DNA of 20,000 nucleotides from an uncultured virus (IMG/VR IMGVR_UViG_3300030376_007133) (taxonomy: Duplodnaviria > Heunggongvirae > Uroviricota > Caudoviricetes), in the IMG/VR virus record IMGVR_UViG_3300030376_007133, one strand, 5' to 3'. The notes below the pieces were generated by a model. It was not told the origin of the DNA, searched no databases, and worked only from the letters and a program-made list of their open reading frames with translations. Position numbers and translations under genes: made by a program. Each line of letters opens with the position of its first letter. The first letter of the stretch is position 1. Below, in pieces: positions 5,961 to 20,000 of the stretch.

Positions 5961-6749
5961 CTATAAGCTGCTATCACCAACATACTTTGTATTATAACCT
6001 GGAAATAACGGATCGTCAGGAGTTCTACTAAAGAATTTAGGTGTATATTCTACACTAAATGCAAACCCAGCTGAATCTGCTTGATCTAAATCATAATTGA
6101 CAATAGACTTTTGTATAACACTTTTACCGGCATCTATAGGACCGTAAAAAGCTGTTTTCATTTCAAAGTCTAAAACATATTGTAATACACTTCTATCTTG
6201 TAATGGTCCTTCAAAATCAGAAAGATAAGAAACACCTTGTAAAGTAATTGGTATATCTTCTAACAAATCAGTATAATCATCAAAAGGTTTCATAGTCAAT
6301 GTATATTGTGGACTAAAGAACGGTAAAATCTGCTCTACTACTTGTAATGCATCATCTTGTGCTTTTGCGTATATAGTCAAAGAAAATGTTATATTATATG
6401 GTACAGATCTTGTAACCACATCTTTTTTAGAACCTTCATCACTAATTGTATTATTATGAAATGTTTTATTTAATTTTTGTAATTGTCTTGTATCATCATA
6501 AATGTACGATGTAATCTCAAAAGACATACGAGGTAGTTTAAGAGCAACGGCCTCATCTCTTTGTATATCTTGAATGCCTTGGATTCGTTCTATGTACTTA
6601 TCACGAGGCGCATATGCTAATGGTACTCTTATAGTACTAATTACTGCACCAGACGAATCTTTACGAAGTATGTATAATTGCGTAAATAGAGAACCAAATG
6701 CTGCTACGCATTTTCTAACCTTCTGATGATAAAAATGAGGGCCGAACAT
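5961..6749 (-). CDS. gp15: Tail sheath stabiliser / tail terminator, T4 gp15-like
   Basis: 262 aa. Motifs MFGPHFYH, FGSLF, VPLAYAP, LPRMSFE, VPYNITFSL, QVVEQILPFFSP and FYGP. Immediately precedes gp16. Confidence 0.96.
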   Translation of the reverse strand: MFGPHFYHQKVRKCVAAFGSLFTQLYILRKDSSGAVISTIRVPLAYAPRDKYIERIQGIQDIQRDEAVALKLPRMSFEITSYIYDDTRQLQKLNKTFHNNTISDEGSKKDVVTRSVPYNITFSLTIYAKAQDDALQVVEQILPFFSPQYTLTMKPFDDYTDLLEDIPITLQGVSYLSDFEGPLQDRSVLQYVLDFEMKTAFYGPIDAGKSVIQKSIVNYDLDQADSAGFAFSVEYTPKFFSRTPDDPLFPGYNTKYVGDSSL

Positions 6750-7552
6750 TACTTACCTATCCTTAGCATATAATCGGTATTAACAAAATCTGCTTTACCA
6801 AATATTTTTTCTGCCGTTATGTCTGCATTTTTATGATATTTATCAGCCATTTCATCTAAAAAGTTTTCTAAATCATTAGCATGAGGTAAATCGTGCTTAG
6901 CAATTCTATCGGTTGTATGTTTAATATATCCTGAAACTTCTGTAATAGCTACTTGTGGATGTATACCAAATTGTTGCATATACTCAATAGTAGATGCTGA
7001 AGCTCTAGAACCATTAATTAAGTTACGATACATCAATTCAAATGATCGTCTTACGTGATGTCTCTTTTCTTCCTTTTCAAATGATTCTTCATCCCATTCA
7101 TCAATGCCATAATTTTCTTTTATATTTTCATAGTTATCAATCAAAGTTGCAATATCTTTTATAGAGCCATTTATTTTATTTTCTAACATAACTAAACCGT
7201 GTCTAGCATGCTTTAGCTCAGCTTCTGCAACTGCACCATCTTTACCTTCTAATTCCAAAATTCTCATACGAGTTTTCGCATGATTTACTTGTGATTCAGA
7301 TAATGCCATTTTTCTTTTTTCTACTTCAGCTGTGATTTGTCTTAACATTCTATATGGCGAATGACCATTTAGCATAGTAAGAGTCATCATAGACAAAGTA
7401 GTTTGAGAATTACTTCGATCAAACGCACGTGTAACACGATCTATTTCTGGTAATTTTTCTGCTACTCTTGCCGCAGCAACTTGATTTATATTTTCTGATG
7501 CTTCTAACGGCAAAGAAAAGGTAATCGGTTTTTGTATCACATTATTTTTCAT
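6749..7552 (-). CDS. Hypothetical alpha-helical/coiled-coil protein, possibly an assembly factor for the upstream fibre-like proteins
   Basis: 267-aa ORF with SD AGGAG. Its stop overlaps the gp15 start (TAATG at 6751-6747). Charged, heptad-like central region (RQITAEVEKRKMALSESQ...IKDIATLIDNYENIKE). Function is inferred from context only. Confidence 0.8.
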   Translation of the reverse strand: MKNNVIQKPITFSLPLEASENINQVAAARVAEKLPEIDRVTRAFDRSNSQTTLSMMTLTMLNGHSPYRMLRQITAEVEKRKMALSESQVNHAKTRMRILELEGKDGAVAEAELKHARHGLVMLENKINGSIKDIATLIDNYENIKENYGIDEWDEESFEKEEKRHHVRRSFELMYRNLINGSRASASTIEYMQQFGIHPQVAITEVSGYIKHTTDRIAKHDLPHANDLENFLDEMADKYHKNADITAEKIFGKADFVNTDYMLRIGK

Positions 7553-7560
7553 AATATCTC

Positions 7561-10500
7561 CTATTGAGGTGTACCTGAACTACCACTATTATAATATTGT
7601 CTTATAACCATTTCGCCAAAGTCTGCTGCATTGCCAAGAGTTTGAATAGTTATATATTGAATTTCATCATGAGTTGTTATGTAGCCTTGTGAATTATATG
7701 CACGTACTCCACCTGCCATGACTCCTCTATAATAGTTTGACATACCAGCCATACCAGTCATTGTTTTAGTTAAATCTCCAAAGTCAGATGCATTCCCAGG
7801 AGTAGCTATAGTTATATAATCAATAGTGTTTGTATAATTCAATAGATGATCCGCATCACCAGTAAATCCACCTGCAAATATTCCTCTTGTTTCATCTTGC
7901 ATAGAGGCTGTTCTAAATTTGTTTGTAGTTAAATCTCCAAAGTCCTGAGAATTACCTGTTGTTGCAATAGTTACATAATGCAAATCGTTTGTTCTTTGAA
8001 AAGTAGATCCGTCATGATATGTTCCTCTTTGAAAAATACCATACGTAGCATTAGATATTCCGTTATTACCACCGCCATTAACTATTGCATCACCGAAATC
8101 AGCTGCATTTCCAGTTGTTGCAATTGTAATATAATCTATTGCGTCTTGATTAACTGATCCCTGTACACCACCAGCCCATAGTCCTCTATTACCATCTGAA
8201 GCAGAGCTTCTACTTGCTGTCGCAACTGTTTGATCGCCGAAGTAAGAAGCAGATGCAGGATTAGCTGAATTTATATAGTCTAGTGCAGTAGTTGATCCAG
8301 AAGAATCGATATAATTATATACAATTCTCCCTGCATCGCCACTACTTACAGCGCATACATGTTTTGAACTTACACCACTAGCGTCACCAAAAGAGACAGC
8401 ATTTCCTTTATTGTTAATATCGATATATTGATTGATGTTATCTGGAGTTTGGCCTGAACCATTTTCGCCATTAAATATAATACCTCTATCACCAGAATAT
8501 GAATTAGTTACTGTTTTAATTATTGTTTTACCAGTTGGTCTTGCTTGTTGCCAGTTTTGTCCATAATGGCTTAAATTATATTTAGAGACACTAGAATTAG
8601 AAGTAGTCATGTTAGTCATTGTTTTAGAAATCAATGATGTACCTGGTCTTACCTGTAATCTATTAGATGCGCTCTCGGTATTATTAACATCTTCGATATG
8701 TAAGTGAATTCCATGCCTATCAGCTTGTTGTTGAATTTGATTTTCTCCTGGTACGTTACTATCATAATAGCCTACCGGCAAAGTATTTGGTAACTTTGCT
8801 AACCATAAATTATGATTCGATGTATATAAAGAATCCTCATAATCACCTGATAAAATTAGATTATTATTTGCATCGATATTGACGTCTCCGATTGCAAAAT
8901 AACCAGCATGAGCTCTAATTTTCTTCTGATCTAATAAATTACCATCTGAATCATACTTTAAAATAATATTAAATTGTTCCGCAGGATCGGCCGCCTCTGA
9001 TGCTTTAATGCCATTAAAAAATAAATTACCATCATCATCAACAGCAGCATTATATGTTATACCTGTATACGCATTTGGTTCTGAATGGTTATATACTCTT
9101 TGCCACTTGATAGCTCCAGTATCCTTATCTAATTTTACAACTGATGGTCTAATATCACCCGGACCTTGCATAGAATATCCAGTTAATACAGGATCTCCGC
9201 TTTTAAATAAGTTTAAATCATATAACATATCAGATACATCATCAATACTATCATTAGTTTGAAGACAGCTATGCCATTGTAGTTCACCTACTGAATCTGT
9301 TTTAAATGCTAAGGCATAATTTCCTGAGCCAATATAATTTTGATTAGAGTCATATAATGATCTACCATTATATGATGTTCCGTAGATATTATCAGAATCA
9401 TCTAACTTTACAATTGTACCTACTAAACTATTACCTCTAAAATTCGGTACTGTAAAGTCTGAATCAGTCTCCCACCCAATTTGTTTAGACCATATAGGTG
9501 TACCACTAGTGTTAATCTTTGCTAATGTCATATTAGCAAAACTACCGCCTGAGTTAATGGGGTATGTATTTGTTTGTATTTTAGATTCACCTAATACGAC
9601 AGCATTATCATTTGTATCTACATCAACTCCACGTAGTTTAACACCATTGCCTGCGCTTTGAGCTGTATTATCATAAAAAATCTTTTTATATTCAATATTA
9701 CCTCCTGAGCTTATTTTTGTAATAAGACCAGGACCCCAAGTTTTAGTATGCCAATCTTCACCTACCGTAATTGAATTATTATTTGTATCTACTACCATAT
9801 CATATGGAAAATTATCATCTACATTTTGATTGTTATTCCAATAATATCCCCATAATTTATTGCCATATGTATCATATGATGATACAAACATATCTTTATC
9901 AGAAAAAGATACACCCGATACTATTATATTTCCTTCACCATCTCCAACTATATTATATGATTTTTCATCTGCTAAATTTGAAAAATTATCTATTCTTTGC
10001 CAACCTTCGGACGGAGCACCTCTTGTTAAAAATGCATTTGATTTAAATGGAAATTCATAATCATCATCAAATAATACAGCTGAATCTAAATCTGTCCATA
10101 TTCGTGATTGATAATAAGAACGATAATCTCTTAAATCTGTACCCATAGCAGGTTTATCAGTAACTCGTGATGCCCCGCTATTTGTAAATGTCGCATTACC
10201 TGTTAAATCTGTATAACCATTAGCATCGGCAACAATTAATGTCTTAGTGCCAGTATTTAGAGTATCATCTTTAATAGTAGGTCTAGCTAAACTAGGAACA
10301 AATGGGCCAGGATATTTTACATAATGATGAATTGCAAAGTCTCTAATATAGACACCATCTGAATATCCGTCATTTCTACCAAAAGTCCAAGTTGAATTAC
10401 CTTTTTGAGTTGGCAATTGATACCAGTTACTACCTGCTACTAAACCATCTACATAGCCTATAAGAGCACCACGTTGTCCGTGAGAGTCTGCACCCACGTA

Positions 10501-12558
10501 ACCATCGTATACTCTATCATGCGGAGCTGGCTTATATACAACAGCTCTATGATGCCATCTTGTAGGTCCATCATCTCCTGGCACGCCATCGCTATCAGCG
10601 CCAGGACCAGCAGTACCTGTTAGATTAAAAGATTGTACACCTCCAGATGTTCTCATACCATATTGCATTGTGTAATGTGTACTATTATTTACATCGCTGT
10701 AAAAAAATCTAGGTTCGTCACTCGTTAAATACAATTTAATCTTGCTTGGATTATATGAATAAACCTCTGCTTTACTAGTTTGTGTATCGGTATATTTCAT
10801 CCAATATTCTATGGTCCAGCCATTGGGGCTGTTTAGCCAACCATCATCACCATTAATTTGTAGATAATCATTTGCTCCACTTATACTAACAGAATGTGTT
10901 GATATGTCTGAATCCGGCGGTTGAAAGAAACCATTAGTTCCTTTTATTTTATATAAGTTTTTCTTGTATGAATTGTTTGGATCATTATAATCAGCTGAAG
11001 CAAAAACAGTTCCGTCCGGACTTAAAGCCAAACTTTTTCCAAAATAATCTTGTGTAAAACCCCTAGTCGATGGATTAAATTCTCTAGGATTATAAATTGT
11101 TCCTCGGTGCGATTTATCTCGTATATCAAAAACTGCAACACCACCAGAATAATGTGCAGACCAAGGACTACCAAGATCACCATAAACACCAGAGTCTTCA
11201 TCGTGTCTTAAATTACCGTGTATACCAACATATGGGTAATTCATTGTTAATCCAAATTTACCCCATTCAGCATTATTAATATTATATGTTGTATTGGTTT
11301 GGTTACCAAAACTTCCGTATGCTGTTATATCTGATGCTGTCATAGCAAGTTCATAATTATTATCTAATAACTTTAAAACATAAACTATACCTACAGCTTG
11401 TGTTCCTGGGCTTGTCATACCACTGTTGATGTCATCAAAAGGAGCAGATGATAATAAGTAATGATCACTATCTTTTTGATGTGCAAATATATTATAACCA
11501 AACCCATCTCCTACTTGATTCATTTTTTTCTGAATCATATTCATTAAACCAGGATTTTCTATTGTATATAAATGCTCATAAGTTGTTGTACTAAAAACAT
11601 GAACCGCACCAGCGTTTTCGCCGCCATAAGTTCCTGTAAATATTGGTTGGCCATACGCGTATGCCCATTCAGGGTCGTCTACATAAGCATCAGCATTTGG
11701 CGCCGCAACACAAATATATTTGTCCGTCATAGCTACGCACTGGCCGAAGTTATGATCACTAAGTCCGTCAGTCTGAGCTCTAACATTTCTCAATGAATAT
11801 AATTTAGTATTTAAATCACTGAGACTATAAATGTCAACTGTTGGATCACTTGCTGATCCTGCACAAAATGCTATCTTTCCACCAGCTATACCAACAGAGC
11901 TCGCACCAGTAGAAGTCGTTTGCTTAGAATACACATTCTCATATTTTTTCAGTAGAGTACCTTGATCATTATATACACATACATAACCATCAGTAGCGCT
12001 ACTACCAGTTGTTTCTCTTATAATAATTTTATCACTATCAGCATCTATCGTTTGAGTTTGATTATAACTTGTTGGTGTTTGGCCCTGAAGATTATGCGTA
12101 GTCAAATTATCAGCTAATAATCCATTTTCTACATCTTCGTATATGAGAAACTTACCTTGACCGCCTACAATAACTTTATTATTATTGTATCTTATATTAC
12201 GACCAAAATTAGTTGTAAAACTTGTTACCGTCTCATCGACAGTAATGTTATAGCTATTATATGTTTTTTGTGCATTATCTCCACTAGCCGGTGTAACAAT
12301 TTTAATTTTATTACCCATGCCTAAACCATGTGTACCACAATAATAATTCATCGCATCTGGAGCATCTGTCGGAACAGTAAATGTTACTTTACCACCAACT
12401 GTACCTTCTGTACCTGATGTTGTAACACCACTAGAGTATGTGCTAGACCCACTATCAGATGTAAATCTAAATGGATGAGTGGCATTGCTTGAATCACTTA
12501 CATCAAATGTGTAAGTTTGGCCTCTTTCCATTTTTAGTTTTGGGCGATAGACTGGCAT
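7561..12558 (-). CDS. Large multidomain putative virion surface/adhesin protein (cupredoxin-like N-terminus, FG-GAP-like propeller, LamG/ConA-like domain, second propeller, C-terminal Kelch-like repeats)
   Basis: 1665 aa with SD AAGGA, rich in S/T/G/N/D. Motifs HPF...YYCGTHGLGMG, FGQCVAM...AAP...GAVHVF, WTIEYWMK...WHHRAVV...YVDG, repeated D-x-x-G-N-x-x-V-x-G / G-x-x-x-W, and six YxxIxxxGNAxxFGD-type repeats. Confidence 0.85.
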   Translation of the reverse strand: MPVYRPKLKMERGQTYTFDVSDSSNATHPFRFTSDSGSSTYSSGVTTSGTEGTVGGKVTFTVPTDAPDAMNYYCGTHGLGMGNKIKIVTPASGDNAQKTYNSYNITVDETVTSFTTNFGRNIRYNNNKVIVGGQGKFLIYEDVENGLLADNLTTHNLQGQTPTSYNQTQTIDADSDKIIIRETTGSSATDGYVCVYNDQGTLLKKYENVYSKQTTSTGASSVGIAGGKIAFCAGSASDPTVDIYSLSDLNTKLYSLRNVRAQTDGLSDHNFGQCVAMTDKYICVAAPNADAYVDDPEWAYAYGQPIFTGTYGGENAGAVHVFSTTTYEHLYTIENPGLMNMIQKKMNQVGDGFGYNIFAHQKDSDHYLLSSAPFDDINSGMTSPGTQAVGIVYVLKLLDNNYELAMTASDITAYGSFGNQTNTTYNINNAEWGKFGLTMNYPYVGIHGNLRHDEDSGVYGDLGSPWSAHYSGGVAVFDIRDKSHRGTIYNPREFNPSTRGFTQDYFGKSLALSPDGTVFASADYNDPNNSYKKNLYKIKGTNGFFQPPDSDISTHSVSISGANDYLQINGDDGWLNSPNGWTIEYWMKYTDTQTSKAEVYSYNPSKIKLYLTSDEPRFFYSDVNNSTHYTMQYGMRTSGGVQSFNLTGTAGPGADSDGVPGDDGPTRWHHRAVVYKPAPHDRVYDGYVGADSHGQRGALIGYVDGLVAGSNWYQLPTQKGNSTWTFGRNDGYSDGVYIRDFAIHHYVKYPGPFVPSLARPTIKDDTLNTGTKTLIVADANGYTDLTGNATFTNSGASRVTDKPAMGTDLRDYRSYYQSRIWTDLDSAVLFDDDYEFPFKSNAFLTRGAPSEGWQRIDNFSNLADEKSYNIVGDGEGNIIVSGVSFSDKDMFVSSYDTYGNKLWGYYWNNNQNVDDNFPYDMVVDTNNNSITVGEDWHTKTWGPGLITKISSGGNIEYKKIFYDNTAQSAGNGVKLRGVDVDTNDNAVVLGESKIQTNTYPINSGGSFANMTLAKINTSGTPIWSKQIGWETDSDFTVPNFRGNSLVGTIVKLDDSDNIYGTSYNGRSLYDSNQNYIGSGNYALAFKTDSVGELQWHSCLQTNDSIDDVSDMLYDLNLFKSGDPVLTGYSMQGPGDIRPSVVKLDKDTGAIKWQRVYNHSEPNAYTGITYNAAVDDDGNLFFNGIKASEAADPAEQFNIILKYDSDGNLLDQKKIRAHAGYFAIGDVNIDANNNLILSGDYEDSLYTSNHNLWLAKLPNTLPVGYYDSNVPGENQIQQQADRHGIHLHIEDVNNTESASNRLQVRPGTSLISKTMTNMTTSNSSVSKYNLSHYGQNWQQARPTGKTIIKTVTNSYSGDRGIIFNGENGSGQTPDNINQYIDINNKGNAVSFGDASGVSSKHVCAVSSGDAGRIVYNYIDSSGSTTALDYINSANPASASYFGDQTVATASRSSASDGNRGLWAGGVQGSVNQDAIDYITIATTGNAADFGDAIVNGGGNNGISNATYGIFQRGTYHDGSTFQRTNDLHYVTIATTGNSQDFGDLTTNKFRTASMQDETRGIFAGGFTGDADHLLNYTNTIDYITIATPGNASDFGDLTKTMTGMAGMSNYYRGVMAGGVRAYNSQGYITTHDEIQYITIQTLGNAADFGEMVIRQYYNSGSSGTPQ
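7564..8490 (-). repeat. Six protein repeats of about 47-55 aa (likely a six-bladed Kelch-like beta-propeller)
   Basis: NQYIDINNKGNAVSFGD, LDYINSANPASASYFGD, IDYITIATTGNAADFGD, LHYVTIATTGNSQDFGD, IDYITIATPGNASDFGD and IQYITIQTLGNAADFGE, with intervening RGLWAGG/RGIFAGG/RGVMAGG. Confidence 0.85.
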
Positions 12559-12568
12559 TTCTTATTCC

Positions 12569-15500
12569 TTATTCTGTTCCAAAAGTCATATTTGGCCAAT
12601 CCATTTTACGTACAGATAGGCTTTTAAAATTATCATCTGCTATACTGTAAATAGTTCTACCAGTAAATGAGAAATCAAATCCTTTTGCATCTGAAAAGTC
12701 TTCTTCATTTTCAGGCATAGTGTTAAAATTAAAGTTAGCAATTGTACCACTATGATTTGCCTGATCATATTTTCTCCATAATCCACCACTAACTATTGAA
12801 CCTTGATAGATATAATCTCTTACAGTTGCAAAGTGGTCCTGACCAAGTATGTAGAAGTTGTAGGTACTATAATGATTAGCTTTAATCTTAGTTGCATCTG
12901 GTGATACACCAAGCTGTCCGTTAACATTTGTAATAGCGCCAACATCTAGATTAGCATAGCTACTACCAGCAGTTGATGGATCATATGATTCACTATCAAG
13001 TGCATATTGATATATTGTATTATTTTGTCCACCTAGGACAATCATTCCATTACCCCAAGGTGACATTATAAAATCTCGAGGATTATTATCATCAGGTACA
13101 GTAAATGTTTTTGCTGTATCTTGAACCGCAGTACTTACATCCCAAGAAGTAGATAGGTCGTATGTTTTAATTTTACCTGAGGTTCCGCCTACTGTATAGA
13201 GCTGCGTACCATCTCTCTTAAATGATATTGATAAATTATCTGTACCATCTAGTGTAAACGATCTTACATAGCTCATATTTGTCAAGTCTGCAGAATCGGC
13301 AGAGAAAAATTGTTTAACAGTAGTAGTACCATCTAAGACATAAAAGTTTCCTTGATCACCAACAGCAAGATCATTTGGTGATGTAACATTCTGATATGTA
13401 TTAAAACCAGTAGATAAGGGTGTAAGAGATCTAATTTTACCACCAGACCATCTACGATTAGCTGTAGAAGGTGGATAACCAAACGTTAAGTCTGATAGAC
13501 TTGCAACAGCTTCACCATAGAAAACATTACCTTGTGTTGCGCTATCTTCATATAACGGACCTTGATCAACCGTAATTACCCAGTTAGCAGCCGTTGCATA
13601 TCCTAATCCGTCACTATCTGAATTAGATGTTGGCGGTGGCGGTGGAGGCGGAACTGAATCTTCAATTTTATATCTTCTAATAACAGTTGAACCATCAGCT
13701 GTTAGTGACACATATAGGTAATCTTTAGTTGCGGCAAGATCACCTCTTGCAGATGTAACAGTACCGTGATTACTATTACTTGATAATTTCAAGAATTTAT
13801 CTGAATCCCAAGTAGCTGTTTTAACATTCCATGCGGAATCTAAATCAAATTGGTAAATACCAACTCCTCTTGAATAAGTGTTAGTATTAGTAAGCATATA
13901 CATTCTAGTACCGTCGTGGTTCAAGACAGTTCCAAGAGTACTACTATCACCGCTTACAATACCAGGAGTATATAAGCCACCGCTATCTACCATATCTAAA
14001 TCTATTGTATATGGAGAAGATAAGTTCCATTGTGAAATTAGATTAGTAGAACCATTTACATTTGTCCAGTATAACTTATTACCGCTGTCTCCAAACTGAA
14101 TGTTCTCAGGTCTCTGATCATGGTTAGTACCAGTTTGATCTGTAATTTGTGAATTAAATGCTAATGTACCCCAGAATGAAGTTCTATCACCATCTGATTC
14201 GTTATCTATTCTATCTAAGCTATATGCACTAGCACCATTACTTATGTCATACATGCTAATTTCATTTTTGTAAATGTCTAGAGGTGTACCAATCCGTGTA
14301 GTTGCTAATTTATTCCAGTCATTAGTAAATGTCATACCATGGCTTTTAAATTTATGAGCTGAGTCAGTCATACCAAAAGTTGGTTCTTTATTCGTATCTC
14401 GAATTGCTGTAGATAAATCGTATGGAGTTGACATTGTAAATACACGCCAGTCATCTTGGCCAAGATCTTTCATTACAATTGTTGACCCATCTGGGCTAAC
14501 TTCTAATCCGTAATCATTTGATACAGTAGACCAACTTAATTCTTGTGTTGAATCATAAACTAAGTTTTGTATGCTTTGTTGAGGAAACCCAGCACTATCG
14601 GCACTATCACCGCTTCCAGCACTATCTGCACTATCGGCGCTATCGGCACTATCGCCACCACTTCCTGCACTATCAGCTACGTAGTCTGAATCTTCATAGT
14701 AGTATACTCTACCTGCGTCTACATTTCCAGCCGAATCGTCATAAGCATTATTACCTATAATAAGACTCTTGCCTCTAATATCTATCTCTTGTCCAAAATA
14801 ACTACTTGACTGTTCAGTAGGGCTTTTAATAGTTGATTTTAAAGATCCGTCTGACACATTGAATACATATGCTTTACCGTATCCAGCTTCATAGATAGCA
14901 CCTACAACTGCATGATCGCTGTCTATAGCAACTGCTCCTCCATAAGCAAAATAAGCACCTGTTCCTGGATGAGATAATGTATGTAATAATGACCCATCAG
15001 ATAAGTCATAGATATAAGCCTTACCTTCATCCGTATTTCCAGCTGAATCTTCACTTGGAGCAGCTACGATAGCGTGTGTATTACTAATTGCTACTCCTTC
15101 ACCAAAATAATCATTGGTATCAGTTGTGTTAGGATTTGGATTATTTAGCGTATATAACTGATTAAAGTTATTTTGTGCATCATAAACATATGCTACTCCA
15201 TCACCACCGGCTCGTGATGAGACTATAGCATACTTATCACTCATATGAACATCCCAACCAAACCTTCCCTTTGCTGGAGTTGGATTGTTTAATGTATGAG
15301 CTACTTGTCCATCAGATGTGTTAAAAACGTATGCTCTACCAGCCCCTGCTTGATAATTAGCATACGAACCATATGCACCTACAATAGCATGCGTTTCATT
15401 TATATCGACAGCATAACCAAAATATTGTTGGACGTTTAAATTATTATTGTCATTGGCTAATGGATTTGATAGAGTATATCTCTTAGATCCATCTGACAAG

Positions 15501-18500
15501 TTAAAGATATGAGCTATACCAGGTTTATATTGATAAGTAATTTCTTCTCTAGGAGCACCAACAACAGCGTATGAATTACTAATTCCAACTGCAGCTCCGA
15601 ATCTATCAACTATAGCACTTCCATATATATTTGGGTTATCTAATGTGTGTATTAAAGTATTACCTGTGGAATCATAAATATATGCTTTACCAGAAGAAGC
15701 TCCTGCTGTATCATCTTCTTGAGGAGCACCAGCTATAATATTTTTACTAGTCATAGCTACTTTATAACCAAATGTATCATAGGAAGGAGTGTCGTATGGA
15801 TTTGGATTATTTATTGTGTTTGTTAGCACCCAAGGATCTGCACTATCAACGACTGGTCCAGTACTATCATCTTGAGATAATACATACGTACCCTGAATCA
15901 TAGGCTTAACACTTATGTCAGGAGTTGTAATAGCTGGAGATCCAGCACTATCAGGTTGTGTACTAAATTCCCATAAATTAAAATGAGCATAATCTGGTGT
16001 ACCAGCTATTTCACTAGCGTAAGTCATCATATAGAATCTGTTACCAGATGGGTGTATACCCATTTTGCCTGATGGTTTTACATGTGTAGGACCACCGGCA
16101 CTTTCAGCTAAATTAGTAATTTCAGCTTGTCTATCAAATGCCATAGTTGTAATATCATATGGAGTATCTAATGTAGCTTTTACTAAGTTAACTCTCCAAC
16201 CACCTAGGCCGCTACCGCCTGATTCATTAAAGTTCGCTGAGTCAAATTGCTGATGTATAAAATACATTTCTGAACCGTCATGATTAAATACACTACCAGC
16301 ATTGAATGCTAATCTTAATGCATCACTTGCATATTCAGCTCCATCACTATCTGAATCTGAATATTGTGTATGACGATAAATTGTACTTGGATTATATCCT
16401 GGAGATGTACAAGTTGATATATCGTATGGCGTACCGAATGTTTGTTTAATAGTATCACCACGAGGACCAAGCTTTGTACTAATAAGACTACGTCCGCTAT
16501 CTATCCACTCATTAGAATAATTATTAATTACTTGTAAATTCGAATCATATGTCCAATTGTTCAGCCTAACTGAACCGTTTGACCACATATTTAAAGAACC
16601 TGTACCAATTTTATGTTCAGGCGTAATTGTACCATTTAAATTCCATGCAGAATCTAGAGCGAATTGCGCGACAACGCTGTAAGTATTACCACTAACCCAC
16701 ATCTTTGTACCTTGTGGATTAAACCATACATCAAGCATATTATGTTCTGAATATTGTCCAGAATATCCACCTTGGAAAATATCAGAAAAATGCGTAGATA
16801 AATTTAATGAAGCCGCACTCTCAGCATGATTAATGCTTGACACATCATACGGAGTGCTCATTTTCATACCATACACATATTGTGTATTTGTATATGCACC
16901 ACCAGAAACATAGAATAACTTTCTACCATTATCTCCAAATGTTACGCCTCTTGGCATATACAATGAACCTGTTACGTCAGAAGTAGTCCAATGATATTTA
17001 GATTCAAATCTAATTTTTTCTAAACCAAGATTTACGGCTGCACTATCAAAGACTGAAGATGTTGAAGACTGAGCAACTCGTGTGGAATAATCTGAATCAG
17101 ACATAAATCCAGGGTCTGCAGCTTGACCGCCTTGTTGTCCCTGTCCAGCTCCTCCACCTTGTGTTGGAGTTGTTACGCCGTCATACGTACCTGGTATTAA
17201 TTCTATATGAGTCCAACCATTTGCATTAGGATCAAGCGTTAATGTGTCTGTAGATGTTTGCTTAATATACTCAAGCTTAACAGCATTTAAATATCCATTT
17301 TGGTTGTGTACAGTTATCGTAAAACCTGGTATATTTAAATTCCTAAGTCCAGAATAGAAACTACCATTATAATTATCACCTGCACCATTTGTAGGCCCAT
17401 ATGTATATGTTATACCATTTGCTGTGAGTGTGTAGGTTTTACCACTTGCAAAACTAGGATCATTTTTTGTACCAAACACTTCGATATCTGGTTGTGGATC
17501 AGCACTATCACCAGCTGATAAATCTTGTCTATCACCTGATACTCCGTATTCACCTTCTAAAATTCCTAGATGTATCCAGCCTGAGCCTGCAAATTTTACC
17601 GTATCGCCATCAACTTGTGGAGTATATTTTACTTCTATTCCATTTACAATACCTGTAGCGTTATAAGAACCGATAACTAGACCAGGTATATTTAAATCTC
17701 TAATACCTTCAAAATAATTTCTTTCATCTTCACCAGTTGCATTATATTGATATGTGACTCCATTAGCAACGACTTTATATTCTAAAGGATAATCGAATGA
17801 TGGATCACTTTTTGTTCCTTGAATAACAGCTTCAGTTGGAGTAGAAGTTTGAGTTGCAATTGCCGCTGCTTCTTGAGCAACGGTTGCCGCTTCAGGTTCG
17901 CCGAACGGATTAGACTCAGAAAAATCTAAAAAGTCTGATGCCTCATCATCGAACTCGTCTGATGCATCTCCTGGTATCTCAGGATTTTCTGATTTAGTAA
18001 TTACACTACTAGCACCTGATGCTGGAGCAGTTACAACAGAATTAGGTCCTGGTTCTACAAAATCTCCTGTATCATTTGCAACGTGAATAATTACAAGTTT
18101 TCCAGTTTCTTCTATAAACTCAGCAACTTCACCTGTCATTGTTGCCGCAGTTGAATCAGCGCCAATACCAGAAATATTTACGTCTTCACCAACTTCAAAC
18201 TCTTGATTAGGAAATGGTTTTTCAATAGTTATAGTAGGTGGATTATTCTCGTCATAAAAATTACCACTATCGACAACATTGATTTTTGTAACAGTACCAG
18301 TCGATGAATCAAAATCCACGCTTAATTGTGCAGCAAAATCTGATTTAGGATCTGTAGACTTTGCAACTGTAATTGTTGGTGGTGATGTATAACCAGATCC
18401 TGAATCTGTAATGTTTATAGATGAAACTTCAGCATTTTGTAATACAGCTGCTGCAGTCGCTTGAGTACCTGATAATTGATCAGGTGGACTGATAGTTACA

Positions 18501-18697
18501 GTTGGAGGTGTATTATAAAAATTACCACCGCTATCTACTGCTATACTTGCAATTCCGTCACCATCCATAACTGGTGTAACGGCAGCTGGTTCTTTAGGAG
18601 CCGCTGGTTCTGATACAGTGATAGCCGGTTTCTCTTGATACTTTTCACCAGGGTTTGTAACTGATGCTCTACGTAATCTTTTCCATCTATGACTCAT
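12569..18697 (-). CDS. Giant putative neck-associated virion protein: gp14-type C-terminal segment fused to a duplicated domain of about 100 aa and about four beta-propellers
   Basis: 2042 aa. SD GGAG 8 nt upstream; start overlaps the gp14 stop. aa 1-268 carry DSG-x-x-Y-x-x-PP-x-V/I repeats, an FEVGEDV module and DFLDFSESNPFGEP. Later come STPYD/TSWDVST-type propeller repeats and seven FG...GAP-type blades. Confidence 0.88.
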   Translation of the reverse strand: MSHRWKRLRRASVTNPGEKYQEKPAITVSEPAAPKEPAAVTPVMDGDGIASIAVDSGGNFYNTPPTVTISPPDQLSGTQATAAAVLQNAEVSSINITDSGSGYTSPPTITVAKSTDPKSDFAAQLSVDFDSSTGTVTKINVVDSGNFYDENNPPTITIEKPFPNQEFEVGEDVNISGIGADSTAATMTGEVAEFIEETGKLVIIHVANDTGDFVEPGPNSVVTAPASGASSVITKSENPEIPGDASDEFDDEASDFLDFSESNPFGEPEAATVAQEAAAIATQTSTPTEAVIQGTKSDPSFDYPLEYKVVANGVTYQYNATGEDERNYFEGIRDLNIPGLVIGSYNATGIVNGIEVKYTPQVDGDTVKFAGSGWIHLGILEGEYGVSGDRQDLSAGDSADPQPDIEVFGTKNDPSFASGKTYTLTANGITYTYGPTNGAGDNYNGSFYSGLRNLNIPGFTITVHNQNGYLNAVKLEYIKQTSTDTLTLDPNANGWTHIELIPGTYDGVTTPTQGGGAGQGQQGGQAADPGFMSDSDYSTRVAQSSTSSVFDSAAVNLGLEKIRFESKYHWTTSDVTGSLYMPRGVTFGDNGRKLFYVSGGAYTNTQYVYGMKMSTPYDVSSINHAESAASLNLSTHFSDIFQGGYSGQYSEHNMLDVWFNPQGTKMWVSGNTYSVVAQFALDSAWNLNGTITPEHKIGTGSLNMWSNGSVRLNNWTYDSNLQVINNYSNEWIDSGRSLISTKLGPRGDTIKQTFGTPYDISTCTSPGYNPSTIYRHTQYSDSDSDGAEYASDALRLAFNAGSVFNHDGSEMYFIHQQFDSANFNESGGSGLGGWRVNLVKATLDTPYDITTMAFDRQAEITNLAESAGGPTHVKPSGKMGIHPSGNRFYMMTYASEIAGTPDYAHFNLWEFSTQPDSAGSPAITTPDISVKPMIQGTYVLSQDDSTGPVVDSADPWVLTNTINNPNPYDTPSYDTFGYKVAMTSKNIIAGAPQEDDTAGASSGKAYIYDSTGNTLIHTLDNPNIYGSAIVDRFGAAVGISNSYAVVGAPREEITYQYKPGIAHIFNLSDGSKRYTLSNPLANDNNNLNVQQYFGYAVDINETHAIVGAYGSYANYQAGAGRAYVFNTSDGQVAHTLNNPTPAKGRFGWDVHMSDKYAIVSSRAGGDGVAYVYDAQNNFNQLYTLNNPNPNTTDTNDYFGEGVAISNTHAIVAAPSEDSAGNTDEGKAYIYDLSDGSLLHTLSHPGTGAYFAYGGAVAIDSDHAVVGAIYEAGYGKAYVFNVSDGSLKSTIKSPTEQSSSYFGQEIDIRGKSLIIGNNAYDDSAGNVDAGRVYYYEDSDYVADSAGSGGDSADSADSADSAGSGDSADSAGFPQQSIQNLVYDSTQELSWSTVSNDYGLEVSPDGSTIVMKDLGQDDWRVFTMSTPYDLSTAIRDTNKEPTFGMTDSAHKFKSHGMTFTNDWNKLATTRIGTPLDIYKNEISMYDISNGASAYSLDRIDNESDGDRTSFWGTLAFNSQITDQTGTNHDQRPENIQFGDSGNKLYWTNVNGSTNLISQWNLSSPYTIDLDMVDSGGLYTPGIVSGDSSTLGTVLNHDGTRMYMLTNTNTYSRGVGIYQFDLDSAWNVKTATWDSDKFLKLSSNSNHGTVTSARGDLAATKDYLYVSLTADGSTVIRRYKIEDSVPPPPPPPTSNSDSDGLGYATAANWVITVDQGPLYEDSATQGNVFYGEAVASLSDLTFGYPPSTANRRWSGGKIRSLTPLSTGFNTYQNVTSPNDLAVGDQGNFYVLDGTTTVKQFFSADSADLTNMSYVRSFTLDGTDNLSISFKRDGTQLYTVGGTSGKIKTYDLSTSWDVSTAVQDTAKTFTVPDDNNPRDFIMSPWGNGMIVLGGQNNTIYQYALDSESYDPSTAGSSYANLDVGAITNVNGQLGVSPDATKIKANHYSTYNFYILGQDHFATVRDYIYQGSIVSGGLWRKYDQANHSGTIANFNFNTMPENEEDFSDAKGFDFSFTGRTIYSIADDNFKSLSVRKMDWPNMTFGTE
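14591..14674 (-). repeat. Imperfect 9-bp tandem repeat (GATAGTGCN) encoding DSAGSGGDSADSADSADSAGSGDSADSA
   Basis: Seven copies of GCACTATC/GCGCTATC on the + strand, in an inter-domain linker of the 2042-aa ORF. Confidence 0.92.
14693..15832 (-). repeat. Seven FG-GAP-like (integrin-alpha-type) repeats forming a complete 7-bladed propeller
   Basis: Seven blades: FGYKVAM..AGAP, FGAAVGI..VGAP, FGYAVDI..VGAY, FGWDVHM..VSSR, FGEGVAI..AAP, FAYGGAVAI..VGAI and FGQEIDI..IGNN. Most end in G-x-A-Y-x-[YF]...TLxNP. Confidence 0.85.
17183..17830 (-). repeat. Two tandem copies of an uncharacterised domain of about 95-100 aa
   Basis: Copy 1 (about 17830-17546): GTKSDPSF..ANGVTYQY..GIRDLNIPG..GWIHLGILEGEY. 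Copy 2 (about 17482-17183): GTKNDPSF..ANGITYTY..GLRNLNIPG..GWTHIELIPGTY. Confidence 0.88.
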
Positions 18698-19290
18698 TAA
18701 TCGAGCTCCACTTTACCGGCTGCTGTGATACCAGTTTCAAGAGTTAGCTCATATCTAAAGGCCCCATCTCTTTCTAGTTGTGAGATATCGTCATTGTTAA
18801 CGTCGAAGTCTTCATCGTTGTATTCGAATAGTTCACATTGTAGTTTAAATACTGGTAGGTTGTTTAATTGATAAAAAGGTTGTTCATGCTCAACATGCAT
18901 GATCTGAAACATTTTCTTCGAGAACGGAGTGAATATTAAATCACCCTCAAGTGGACGAATACCTTGTATCTCATTATCATATCTCATAACCGTTTGTTCC
19001 CAACGGCGTTTAGCGACTGTCAATGTAACTTGATCTCTTATTTCAACACCAAATTTTGTAAATAGATCTCCTTCACCATCGAAACCATCAATGTTGTCGA
19101 CATACATTTCTAACAAATAATTAGAATTAAATCTGGATTCTGGATCTTCTCTGAAAACATCATCAACATTCACTAAGTCACGTGGCAAATAATATAAGTC
19201 TTGTCCATATATTTTTATGGACTCTATAATTAAATCTTCATATAAATTCTGTTCAGACCTTGCTCCAGCACTGAAATAAAGATTACGCAT
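18697..19290 (-). CDS. gp14: Neck / head-completion protein, T4 gp14-like (core only; the typical C-terminal segment lies in the next ORF)
   Basis: 197 aa. Motifs EQNLYEDLIIESIKIYGQDLYYLPR, GFDGEGDLFTKFGVEIRD, RPLEGDLI, VEHEQPFYQL and CELFEY. Confidence 0.95.
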   Translation of the reverse strand: MRNLYFSAGARSEQNLYEDLIIESIKIYGQDLYYLPRDLVNVDDVFREDPESRFNSNYLLEMYVDNIDGFDGEGDLFTKFGVEIRDQVTLTVAKRRWEQTVMRYDNEIQGIRPLEGDLIFTPFSKKMFQIMHVEHEQPFYQLNNLPVFKLQCELFEYNDEDFDVNNDDISQLERDGAFRYELTLETGITAAGKVELD

Positions 19291-19294
19291 ATTC

Positions 19295-20000
19295 TTATCC
19301 TATGAAAAACGATACTGGGTCTTCTTGTTCTAGTCTTAACTCCTCTTGCAATCGTAAAATCTCTTGAGTTGCTGATTCGTATATAGCATCGCCATTCATT
19401 GTGACGCCACCAGGAAGTTGCATTCCTGAGAACTTCATTAAGTTTGACCCCCATTGTTGTTTAATCAGTTGAGTGCCATATAGCTTTAACCATTTGTCAT
19501 TCCATACACTATTATGTGCATTCTCATCTATTTTTATTAAAGCTTCAATTACAACGTATTTATTTTCTTTGAGTGTTTCATCTTCGAAATCACCGTGTAT
19601 ATAAACCCTTTGCTGATGATAAGCATAATCGTGTTGCGGATGACCATTTAGTGTCATATCTAGCAATTGAGTATATTGTTGTATTTGACTAAAGTACCCA
19701 ACGTCTCCAAGGAATGATGTCATGTTTGTAATATCGTGAAGCATCAATTGATACTTAACATCAAACATGGTCGACCCTTGAGTAGAGAGCATAAATGGCA
19801 AAACTCTCTTAACCTGTAGGACATTGGCTGGAACAGTAATATACTTATTTGTAATATCAGCTGCTGTTAACTGATGTTGTATATAAGTACGTAGCATTGA
19901 ATCAGCATGAAATTCTCTGTAATATTCTAAAGCTTGATCTACTCTATCATCTAGCTGATCTTCGTCTACATTTATTTCTATTACAGGATGCCCTAAAGCC
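19295..20000 (-). CDS. gp13: Neck protein, T4 gp13-like (5' end outside the window)
   Basis: The frame stays open upstream of the track's Met at 19897 and reads ALGHPVIEINVDEDQLDDRVDQALEYYREFHADSM, the conserved gp13 N-terminal region. The C-terminal part has WLKLYGTQLIKQQWGSNLMKFSGMQLPGGVTMNG and ends in FFIG. Confidence 0.96.
   Translation of the reverse strand, partial: ALGHPVIEINVDEDQLDDRVDQALEYYREFHADSMLRTYIQHQLTAADITNKYITVPANVLQVKRVLPFMLSTQGSTMFDVKYQLMLHDITNMTSFLGDVGYFSQIQQYTQLLDMTLNGHPQHDYAYHQQRVYIHGDFEDETLKENKYVVIEALIKIDENAHNSVWNDKWLKLYGTQLIKQQWGSNLMKFSGMQLPGGVTMNGDAIYESATQEILRLQEELRLEQEDPVSFFIG

Follow-up and report, generated by a model that had tools for sequence, protein, structure and literature searches.

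The window, a stretch of 20,000 nucleotides (nt) from an uncultured marine T4-like phage of the Caudoviricetes (IMG/VR record IMGVR_UViG_3300030376_007133), carries the gene of the T4-type neck protein gp14 in two pieces. The first gene, designated here as gp14N, encodes the protein core and stops after 197 amino acids (aa). The second, an open reading frame (ORF) of 2042 aa designated as ORF2, starts in the same TAATG and opens with the C-terminal half that gp14N lacks, as 268 aa made up of 3.5 repeats, a small beta-barrel, an acidic helix and a DFLDFSESNPFG hook. The split is genuine, both genes are real and the arrangement is conserved. The fission is also older and wider than the giant protein, and the same beta-hairpin is broken in several diverged lineages. 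It is likely that the hook clamps gp15 at the neck-tail junction.

A neck protein encoded by two coupled genes

The features of the two genes are the following.

18697..19290, minus strand: gp14N, the 197-aa neck-protein core, recognised by PF11649, by the T4 gp14 chains and by alignment to unsplit relatives
18706..18709, minus strand: GGAG, Shine-Dalgarno-like, 8 nt upstream of the ORF2 ATG and within gp14N codons, read from the sequence
18695..18699, minus strand: TAATG stop-start overlap, with TAA of gp14N at 18699-18697, ATG of ORF2 at 18697-18695 and the A common to both
12569..18697, minus strand: ORF2, 2042 aa, starting with MSHRWKRLRR, in the -1 frame relative to gp14N
18605..18697, minus strand: ORF2 aa 1-31, the clade-specific basic head MSHRWKRLRR and the rest of repeat 1 (ASVTNPGEKYQEKPAITV), delimited by alignments
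18212..18604, minus strand: ORF2 aa 32-162, three complete repeats of ~41-49 aa, each with two long strands and a short PP-T-V strand
17993..18211, minus strand: ORF2 aa 163-235, the FEVGEDV beta-barrel of the gp14 C-terminal half, by hhalign against the unsplit gp14 barrel, with AlphaFold2 (AF2) strands at 172-232
17894..17992, minus strand: ORF2 aa 236-268, acidic helix (aa 246-256) and DFLDFSESNPFGEP hook, internal here; helix and then disordered hook in the AF2 model
12569..17893, minus strand: ORF2 aa 269-2042, Ala/Thr-rich linker and then a payload with FG-GAP propeller repeats, a Ser/Asp-rich linker and a poly-Pro linker

The junction had been described in an earlier note, made from the sequence alone, and the description holds in all its coordinates. 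The first gene does stop after 197 aa with the next ORF in the same TAATG; ORF2 does possess its own Shine-Dalgarno site (GGAG at 18709-18706, with an 8-nt spacer) and the basic N-terminus MSHRWKRLRR; and its first 268 aa contain the repeats, the FEVGEDV module and the acidic hook, the last of these (aa 255-268) at nt 17935-17894. The residues appended without a stop after the hook, which the note put at about 1770, number 1774.

The protein gp14N (...GITAAGKVELD*) ends with a strand named b0 (YELTLET) and the first strand of repeat 1 (ITAAGKVEL). It matches Pfam family PF11649 (E 1.9e-34, 119.7 bits against a cut-off of 25) over profile positions 40-195 of 278, and phrog_460, 'head closure Hc2' (E 8.6e-70), over positions 18-206 of 385. 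The match to the T4 gp14 chains 9mkb/9lu4 (E 6e-24) aligns the core only. ORF2 aa 41-267 matches the same phrog_460 profile (E 3.5e-24) over positions 223-376 of 385, complementary to the gp14N half, and an hhalign comparison of the unsplit gp14 alignment with the ORF2 family gave a probability of 99.9% (E 1.4e-32) over 199 columns. The Pfam and PHROG matches of the two halves far exceed chance. A comparison of ORF2 aa 1-270 with full-length gp14, suggested in the earlier note, yields an alignment with the C-terminal half. The alignment with unsplit relatives reveals a common order of modules: core, short strand, repeats, FxVGE barrel, acidic stretch and hook. In the window the repeats of ORF2 (S-I-x-V-x-DSG-x-x-Y-x-x-PP-T-V) comprise three full units and one partial unit. 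The acidic helix and the hook are absent from the gp14N chain, which stops at aa 197, and are located at ORF2 aa 246-268, with the motif DF[ST]E[ST]NPFG at aa 258-266, far from the C-terminus.

A search of PDB sequences with ORF2 aa 1-268 found nothing below E 0.76. As for the repeat itself, the ~45-aa unit A-x-A-x-A..G-x-V..I-x-V-x-D-S-G-x-x-Y..P-P-x-V-T-I occurs in up to 26 copies per protein. Library proteins bearing it include ones named multicopper oxidase, autotransporter-associated and T9SS-sorted, and the repeat has no covering Pfam family. In a search with the unsplit-gp14 profile, one repeat resembles the tailspike Dpo31 (PDB 28lx, E 1.2e-5).

Reality and age of the split

An 801-bp stretch around the junction was found in 20 listed runs (16 with at least half of the sampled words; 13 studies). 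The junction is bridged, with 0 gaps and with no inserted or missing letters, by contigs of 4 runs from 4 studies, in which the indel considered in the earlier note is thus absent. The listed RNA runs contain almost none of the sampled words and are uninformative on expression. A search with ORF2 aa 1-300 was followed by inspection of its 24 top proteins; of these, 21 (1225-2414 aa in total) are 42-98% identical, start with M[SGT]H(R)WKR and have the hook internally, at ~aa 258-262. The metagenome loci fetched, 11 in number, are 54-61% identical over ORF2 aa 1-70. The gp14 end ...GITAxxKVELD* in the TAATG overlap is present in all ten that have upstream sequence, which answers in the affirmative whether related genomes have the same TAATG; the 11th has 15 nt upstream only, and these are identical. 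Each complete gp14N of the payload-clade loci is 197 aa long.

A sequencing or assembly indel, or a recent pseudogenising frameshift, would mean that the true protein is a single gp14-giant fusion. It is the case that the two ORFs lie in different frames and that a 2-nt change at TAATG would fuse them. The scan of IMG/VR with ORF2 aa 1-268 gave one close locus only, L006, which ends inside the repeats; it is 100% identical and hence not independent. For the nearest record, G001 (5.6 kb), the junction region is unmatched. However, the gap-free contigs of four runs and four studies, the same junction in relatives only 42-61% identical in ORF2, the intact halves in 21 split loci among 104, and the conserved GGAG and start context leave practically no room for an artefact. 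An evolved split, which the earlier note had favoured over a sequencing error, is borne out by those contigs and by the diverged relatives with the same junction.

Among 14 sequences, conservation peaks in the 30 nt around the junction, where 23 of 30 positions are invariant. Synonymous sites are kept too within 18677-18714: the His codon CAT, the Arg codon AGA and the Lys codon AAA never vary. In run X4, a 291-nt contig shares only these 38 bases with the window. The conservation of the junction could reflect a translation-initiation constraint or a recombination joint.

Decoration domains added by frameshifting are known in other phage structural proteins. A programmed -1 ribosomal frameshift near the gp14N stop, giving full-length gp14 or a gp14-giant fusion beside the short gp14N, would fit the -1 frame of ORF2 in all 14 lineages whose junctions were compared, the break at one structural site in every split lineage and the unusual conservation of the junction nucleotides. 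Nevertheless, in four payload-clade junctions the ORF2 frame is closed by a stop 1-5 codons ahead of the ATG. In L092 and L096 this is a TGA lying one sense codon ahead of the start; the window and L102 have a TAA at a distance of five codons. Inspection of these junctions by eye, without a dedicated scan, showed no slippery heptamer of the form X XXY YYZ in that space. The ATG, the GGAG and the conserved Met-led N-terminal peptide favour independent initiation, and in L107 and L113 the junction has moved, yet the ORFs are separate. Programmed frameshifting is, on this evidence, very improbable.

The unsplit marine gp14 proteins (PHROG 460; phages C48C1, Melnitz and HTVC008M, cyanophages, and the proteins P0123-P0242) resemble the window in having the core, up to 69% identical, followed by b0, 0-4 repeats (in some with LamG-type inserts), the barrel, the acidic helix and DF[ST]E[ST]NPFG. 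They differ in being single chains of about 290-730 aa with variable domains before the barrel; in the window the chain is split and the variable payload is placed after the hook. Of the cultured phages, Phage C48C1 (gp14 of 292 aa) and the Methylophilales phage Melnitz (287 aa) are the closest relatives; their gp14 is in one piece, ends in ...DFSESNPFGD and 2-5 further aa, and has gp15 directly next, as in the annotated isolates examined; P-RSM6, Mosig and HTVC008M share this one-piece layout. In 118 of the 120 closest unsplit gp14 (those longer than 345 aa, core identity 59-69%) NPFG lies at most 15 residues from the end, in agreement with the statement of the earlier note that DFS-E-x-NPFG is the usual extreme C-terminus of gp14 in marine T4-like phages. 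The other two, P0124 and P0126, have 50-64 aa past the hook, so a free C-terminus is not required. The repeats are likewise dispensable, since unsplit gp14 without them exist (C48C1; L163-165). Many unsplit marine gp14 of 560-730 aa (P0124, P0126, P0133, P0188 and others) carry LamG/concanavalin-like inserts (PF13385, PF02210) between repeats and barrel. Display of added domains on the neck protein is therefore common in these phages.

The gp14 gene is split in 21 of the 104 fetched loci that hold both its core and the hook, and unsplit in 83; the total includes the window, and L007 and L130 belong to one contig. In all 21 split loci the gp14N protein has 197-201 aa, earlier truncation being found in none; in 19 of them, stop codon and ATG share an A, the last base of the former. 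The two others, L107 (TAG..ATG) and L113 (ATGA), have a different junction with the same -1 frame relation and separate ORFs. An all-length HMMER search added stand-alone proteins of 260-279 aa (P0269, P0276, P0306, P0347, P0367), which run from the second strand of repeat 1 to the hook. These and the loci L098-L101, L106 and L007/L008/L014/L107/L113/L170 form the payload-free split gp14: like the window they have the first-hairpin break, the -1 frame and, in most, TAATG, but they lack the basic HRWKRLRR head and any post-hook payload. Their gene order is gp13-gp14N-gp14C-gp15-gp16, the second gene has about 260-628 aa, and the hook lies 3-10 residues before the end of gp14C. These relatives are uncultured contigs throughout.

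Substantial sequence past the hook is found in the MSHRWKR clade only. There the ORF2 lengths are 492, 492, 812, 819, 1227, 1271, 1310, 1423, 1437, 1733 and 2042-2414 aa, and the payload has about 220 to 2150 aa. As the same hairpin is split in lineages ending at the hook, the fission did not arise with the giant extension. The interpretation in the earlier note is thus supported in part: the C-terminal half of gp14 does stand at the head of ORF2, but the split is not peculiar to the giant protein. Similarly, the distinct basic N-terminus noticed there is present and conserved but belongs to the payload clade and not to split gp14 in general.

On the core tree the split rows fall into three groups, which requires 4 changes. 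A single clade of all split rows is rejected by the approximately unbiased (AU) test (p-AU 8e-12), though this group was named only once the tree was known. The barrel-plus-hook tree, with 108 columns kept, gives the same three groups and is compatible with one origin; the agreement of the two trees shows no sign of cassette swapping between groups. The loci L163-L165, with an unsplit, repeat-less gp14 of 298 aa, are nested beside the split L098 on the core tree, which suggests a possible re-fusion via loss of the repeat region.

The broken hairpin and the proposed docking of the hook on gp15

The structural arguments that follow come from monomer predictions. The AF2 model of the unsplit protein P0125 has a predicted local distance difference test (pLDDT) score above 90 from about aa 170-180 to 335, the core being poorly modelled. 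Its strands are 180-186, then 193-199, 202-210 and 220-223 of repeat 1, followed by a second repeat and the barrel (272-335). The gp14N stop of the window corresponds to a point behind strand 193-199, and the ORF2 start to the turn that leads into strand 202-210, which places the break in a beta-hairpin. Both this model and the alignment to unsplit relatives agree with the earlier note that the break is inside the first repeat unit. A fold search of the unsplit gp14 model against 48,161 PDB representatives found no clear fold family: the best hit had Z 7.7 (9f4a_AY), followed by many small beta-barrels with Z 4-6. Matches that span model residues 179..322 with only ~64 aligned suggest that strand 180-186 belongs to the barrel, the repeats being an insertion into it. 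In that case gp14N would retain one strand of the barrel and one of a repeat, and ORF2 would hold the partners of both.

When the ORF2 head was modelled alone, the later repeats folded normally (strands 39-45/48-55/67-69, 81-87/90-98/109-111 and 124-130/135-143/156-158) and the barrel had a pLDDT of 71-89, while aa 1-25 formed no strands. These results may be taken as a soft hint of the need for a partner strand. A complex prediction for gp14N with ORF2 aa 1-115, run without controls, scored 0.01 against a mark of 0.32 and bears neither way on binding. In chaperone-usher pili, donor-strand complementation completes the incomplete beta fold of one chain by a strand of another. The pili are a mechanistic analogue from an unrelated family, and complementation between gp14N and ORF2 is suggested by the position of the break.

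A serious alternative, if on balance an unlikely one, is that ORF2 is anchored by its hook and barrel on gp15 (or elsewhere) without contacting gp14N, whose last strands persist as the ribosome-binding site of ORF2 or for the gp14N fold. GGAG or AGGAG stands in the last gp14N codons in many lineages, the conservation of the junction reaches synonymous sites, and the repeat-less unsplit gp14 (C48C1, L163-165) indicate that the repeats are dispensable. The retention of b0 and strand A by gp14N in 21 of 21 split loci speaks for contact, however, as does the unsplit model, where b0 appears to be part of a barrel otherwise supplied by ORF2. The N-terminal part of repeat 1 in ORF2, conserved yet strandless when folded alone, points the same way.

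In the T4 virion, the gp14 hexamer sits on the gp13 dodecamer and binds the gp15 hexamer, which residues 212-245, an acidic helix and a hook, embrace with five salt bridges per subunit; this C-terminal region is disordered until it clamps gp15 (PMC12929629). The ORF2 model likewise has an acidic helix at 246-256 and then a disordered hook. The T4 gp15 salt-bridge residues were taken from PMC12929629, and in a phmmer alignment of the gp15 of the window with T4 gp15 four of the five basic partners, R11, R38, K46 and R74, correspond to Arg. As the hooks cannot be aligned by sequence, the equivalence of the marine and T4 hooks rests on position, charge and the predicted helix plus disorder.

The preferred reading, judged probable with some reserve, is that gp14N forms the neck ring and that the stop-start-coupled ORF2 is held by its hook on gp15, perhaps also by strand complementation, showing a propeller appendage in up to six copies. 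A neck-tail-mounted appendage is the likely mechanism because the acidic C-terminal helix and hook of T4 gp14 clamp gp15 in cryo-electron microscopy. From the T4 structure and the domain content we infer docking on the neck or upper tail and an adhesin role. The two genes would be translationally coupled, with gp14N assembled in the neck ring and ORF2 fixed at the neck-tail junction. Attached through a flexible Ala-rich linker, the propellers of up to six ORF2 copies would reach outward and act as an accessory fibre for adhesion or host contact. Less firmly, gp14N b0 and strand A of repeat 1 may complete the ORF2 folds by beta-strand complementation. Fission would have set the gene boundary where gp14 already tolerates domain insertions, and one clade would later have gained a variable payload after the hook.

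Several points weigh against this arrangement. The fifth basic partner in T4 gp15, K160, corresponds to Leu in the window, and profiles align T4 gp14 only through the core, to T4 residue 193, the hooks not being alignable. The lower pLDDT of the barrel (71-89 versus 90-96) may reflect a shallower alignment (15 rows versus 32), and the conservation of the gp14N tail may partly stem from the encoded Shine-Dalgarno site and start context. In cultured phages, ORF2 aa 1-268 finds its best tblastn matches in baseplate or 'virion structural' proteins, not in gp14. Moreover, the repeat is promiscuous, with 3431 proteins at E<=0.001 in a whole-library search, many of them giant cellular proteins. Repeats alone are thus no proof of a gp14 origin, and the gp14-specific part of the ORF2 head is, as judged by these comparisons, the barrel and the hook only. 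The adhesin role of the payload is read from domain type only, and the virion arrangement proposed for ORF2 is drawn from genes and predicted models.

Some of these matches would suit a gp14-derived module re-used off the neck, ORF2 being a baseplate or tail-fibre component or a non-virion protein: the same repeat occurs in cyanophage proteins annotated as baseplate wedge or virion structural, and the neighbouring ORF3 matches a 'tail fiber' PHROG. Such a re-use is improbable, given that the barrel and hook are at the gp14 C-terminus in every unsplit relative examined, that the gene is directly downstream of gp14N with stop-start coupling in all relatives, and that the payload-free second gene is simply the rest of gp14, followed by gp15.

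An extension of the neck-mounted reading, possible though doubtful, is that the clamp half is a free-standing, exchangeable coupler. It would load on gp15 or the neck independently of the core, be locked by inter-chain strands at head-tail joining, and serve as a socket for six ~220 kDa propeller fibres; together with a second variable set built on a ~90-aa adaptor, these would make up an unrecognised host-contact cluster between gp14 and gp15.

Payload, neighbouring genes and known systems

Past the hook, ORF2 has an Ala/Thr-rich linker, then ~700 residues conserved within the clade, then variable sequence. The propeller content indicated by the earlier note is confirmed by PF14312 FG-GAP_2 (126.4 bits, cut-off 23), which matches the payload in 5 stretches; ORF2 aa 601-1040 alone scored 34.2 bits. 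Low-complexity linkers, DSADSADSADSAGSGDSADSAG and PPPPPPP, separate C-terminal propeller-like blocks in ORF2 aa ~1440-2042 (12569-14400, minus strand).

The genes around gp14N and ORF2 are the following.

19295..19999, minus strand: gp13 head-tail adaptor, its 5' end beyond the window; phrog_211 'head-tail adaptor Ad2', E 1.6e-35
7561..12558, minus strand: ORF3, 1665 aa, the second giant protein of the gp14-gp15 insert; phrog_30742 'tail fiber protein', E 4.1e-15, with a ~90-aa conserved N-terminal domain
6749..7552, minus strand: ORF4, 267 aa, the last insert gene; sub-threshold family matches only
5961..6749, minus strand: gp15 tail terminator / sheath stabiliser, the presumed hook target; PF16724, 4.2e-61, and T4 gp15 chains, E 8.6e-21

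The gp13 gene is directly upstream of gp14N and is 87-95% identical to the gene at this place in relatives. The gp15 gene lies ~11.9 kb downstream, after ORF2, ORF3 and ORF4, and is followed by gp16, gp17, gp18, gp19 and gp20 in the same minus-strand series.

The core of the window protein and its place after gp13 are those of T4 gp14 (PF11649; PDB 9mkb, 9lu4), which also ends in an acidic C-terminal helix and then an extended hook. T4 gp14 differs in being one 256-aa chain without repeats or barrel; in the window, core and clamp are on separate polypeptides and the clamp is internal. T4 fibritin (wac), which forms the collar and whiskers, is a functional analogue in that its fibres surround the neck, where the gp13 dodecamer carries twelve fibritin trimers (PMC12929629). 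Fibritin is a coiled coil, not a propeller chain, and is attached to gp13, not via a gp14-derived clamp; no fibritin family was listed in the Pfam and PHROG scans of ORF2. Neck-mounted fibres are thus already known, and gp14 with inserted domains are common in the present data.

In full-text literature searches and in passages of PMC7029224 and PMC12379486, no gp14 split into ring and clamp genes was found, nor any giant protein built on a gp14 clamp. Each of the cultured-phage gp14 matches listed lies within a feature annotated as a single gp14 or structural gene, the records not having been inspected one by one. The clamp of gp14 on gp15 was itself resolved only in 2026. Gp14 is a universal part of the T4-type head-tail joint, and many ocean phages encode its ring and clamp as separate coupled genes, always with one hairpin broken. 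This suggests that a joint of three parts, in place of two, can be assembled, and split gp14 offers a natural experiment on clamp function. The payload clade would represent a novel mode of attaching very large and rapidly evolving proteins to the virion, with a conserved neck anchor in front of them in place of a site on the baseplate. The known host-recognition cluster lies between the vrlC gene and gp14 (PMC7029224). Should the payload proteins serve as fibres for host contact, abundant uncultured marine myophages would recognise their hosts partly by means of genes outside that cluster. The 268-aa anchor and the MSHRWKR head are practical handles for finding such proteins in metagenomes.

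For ORF4, family scans gave nothing above threshold (DUF1978, E 0.0026; phrog_1409, E 0.0005), and the gene was unseen in the loci of relatives, which end before its position. The GC content of the window is even, 33-41%. The ~90-aa N-domain of ORF3 recurs with 45-65% identity at the head of one or two ORFs downstream of ORF2 in relatives (L087, L088, L091, L092, L095-L097, L102, L104, L105). Its match to plastocyanin/azurin PF00127 (E 0.005, 17.6 bits) is below the cut-off of 21.2, and it looks like a second adaptor module with variable payloads. ORF3 aa ~1350-1660 (7561-8600, minus strand) contain repeated IDYITIATxGNAxDFGDL units. The last ~300 residues of ORF3 are 32-38% identical to the C-termini of ORF2 homologues (L087, L092, L104, L105); payload domains therefore move between the two anchor types.

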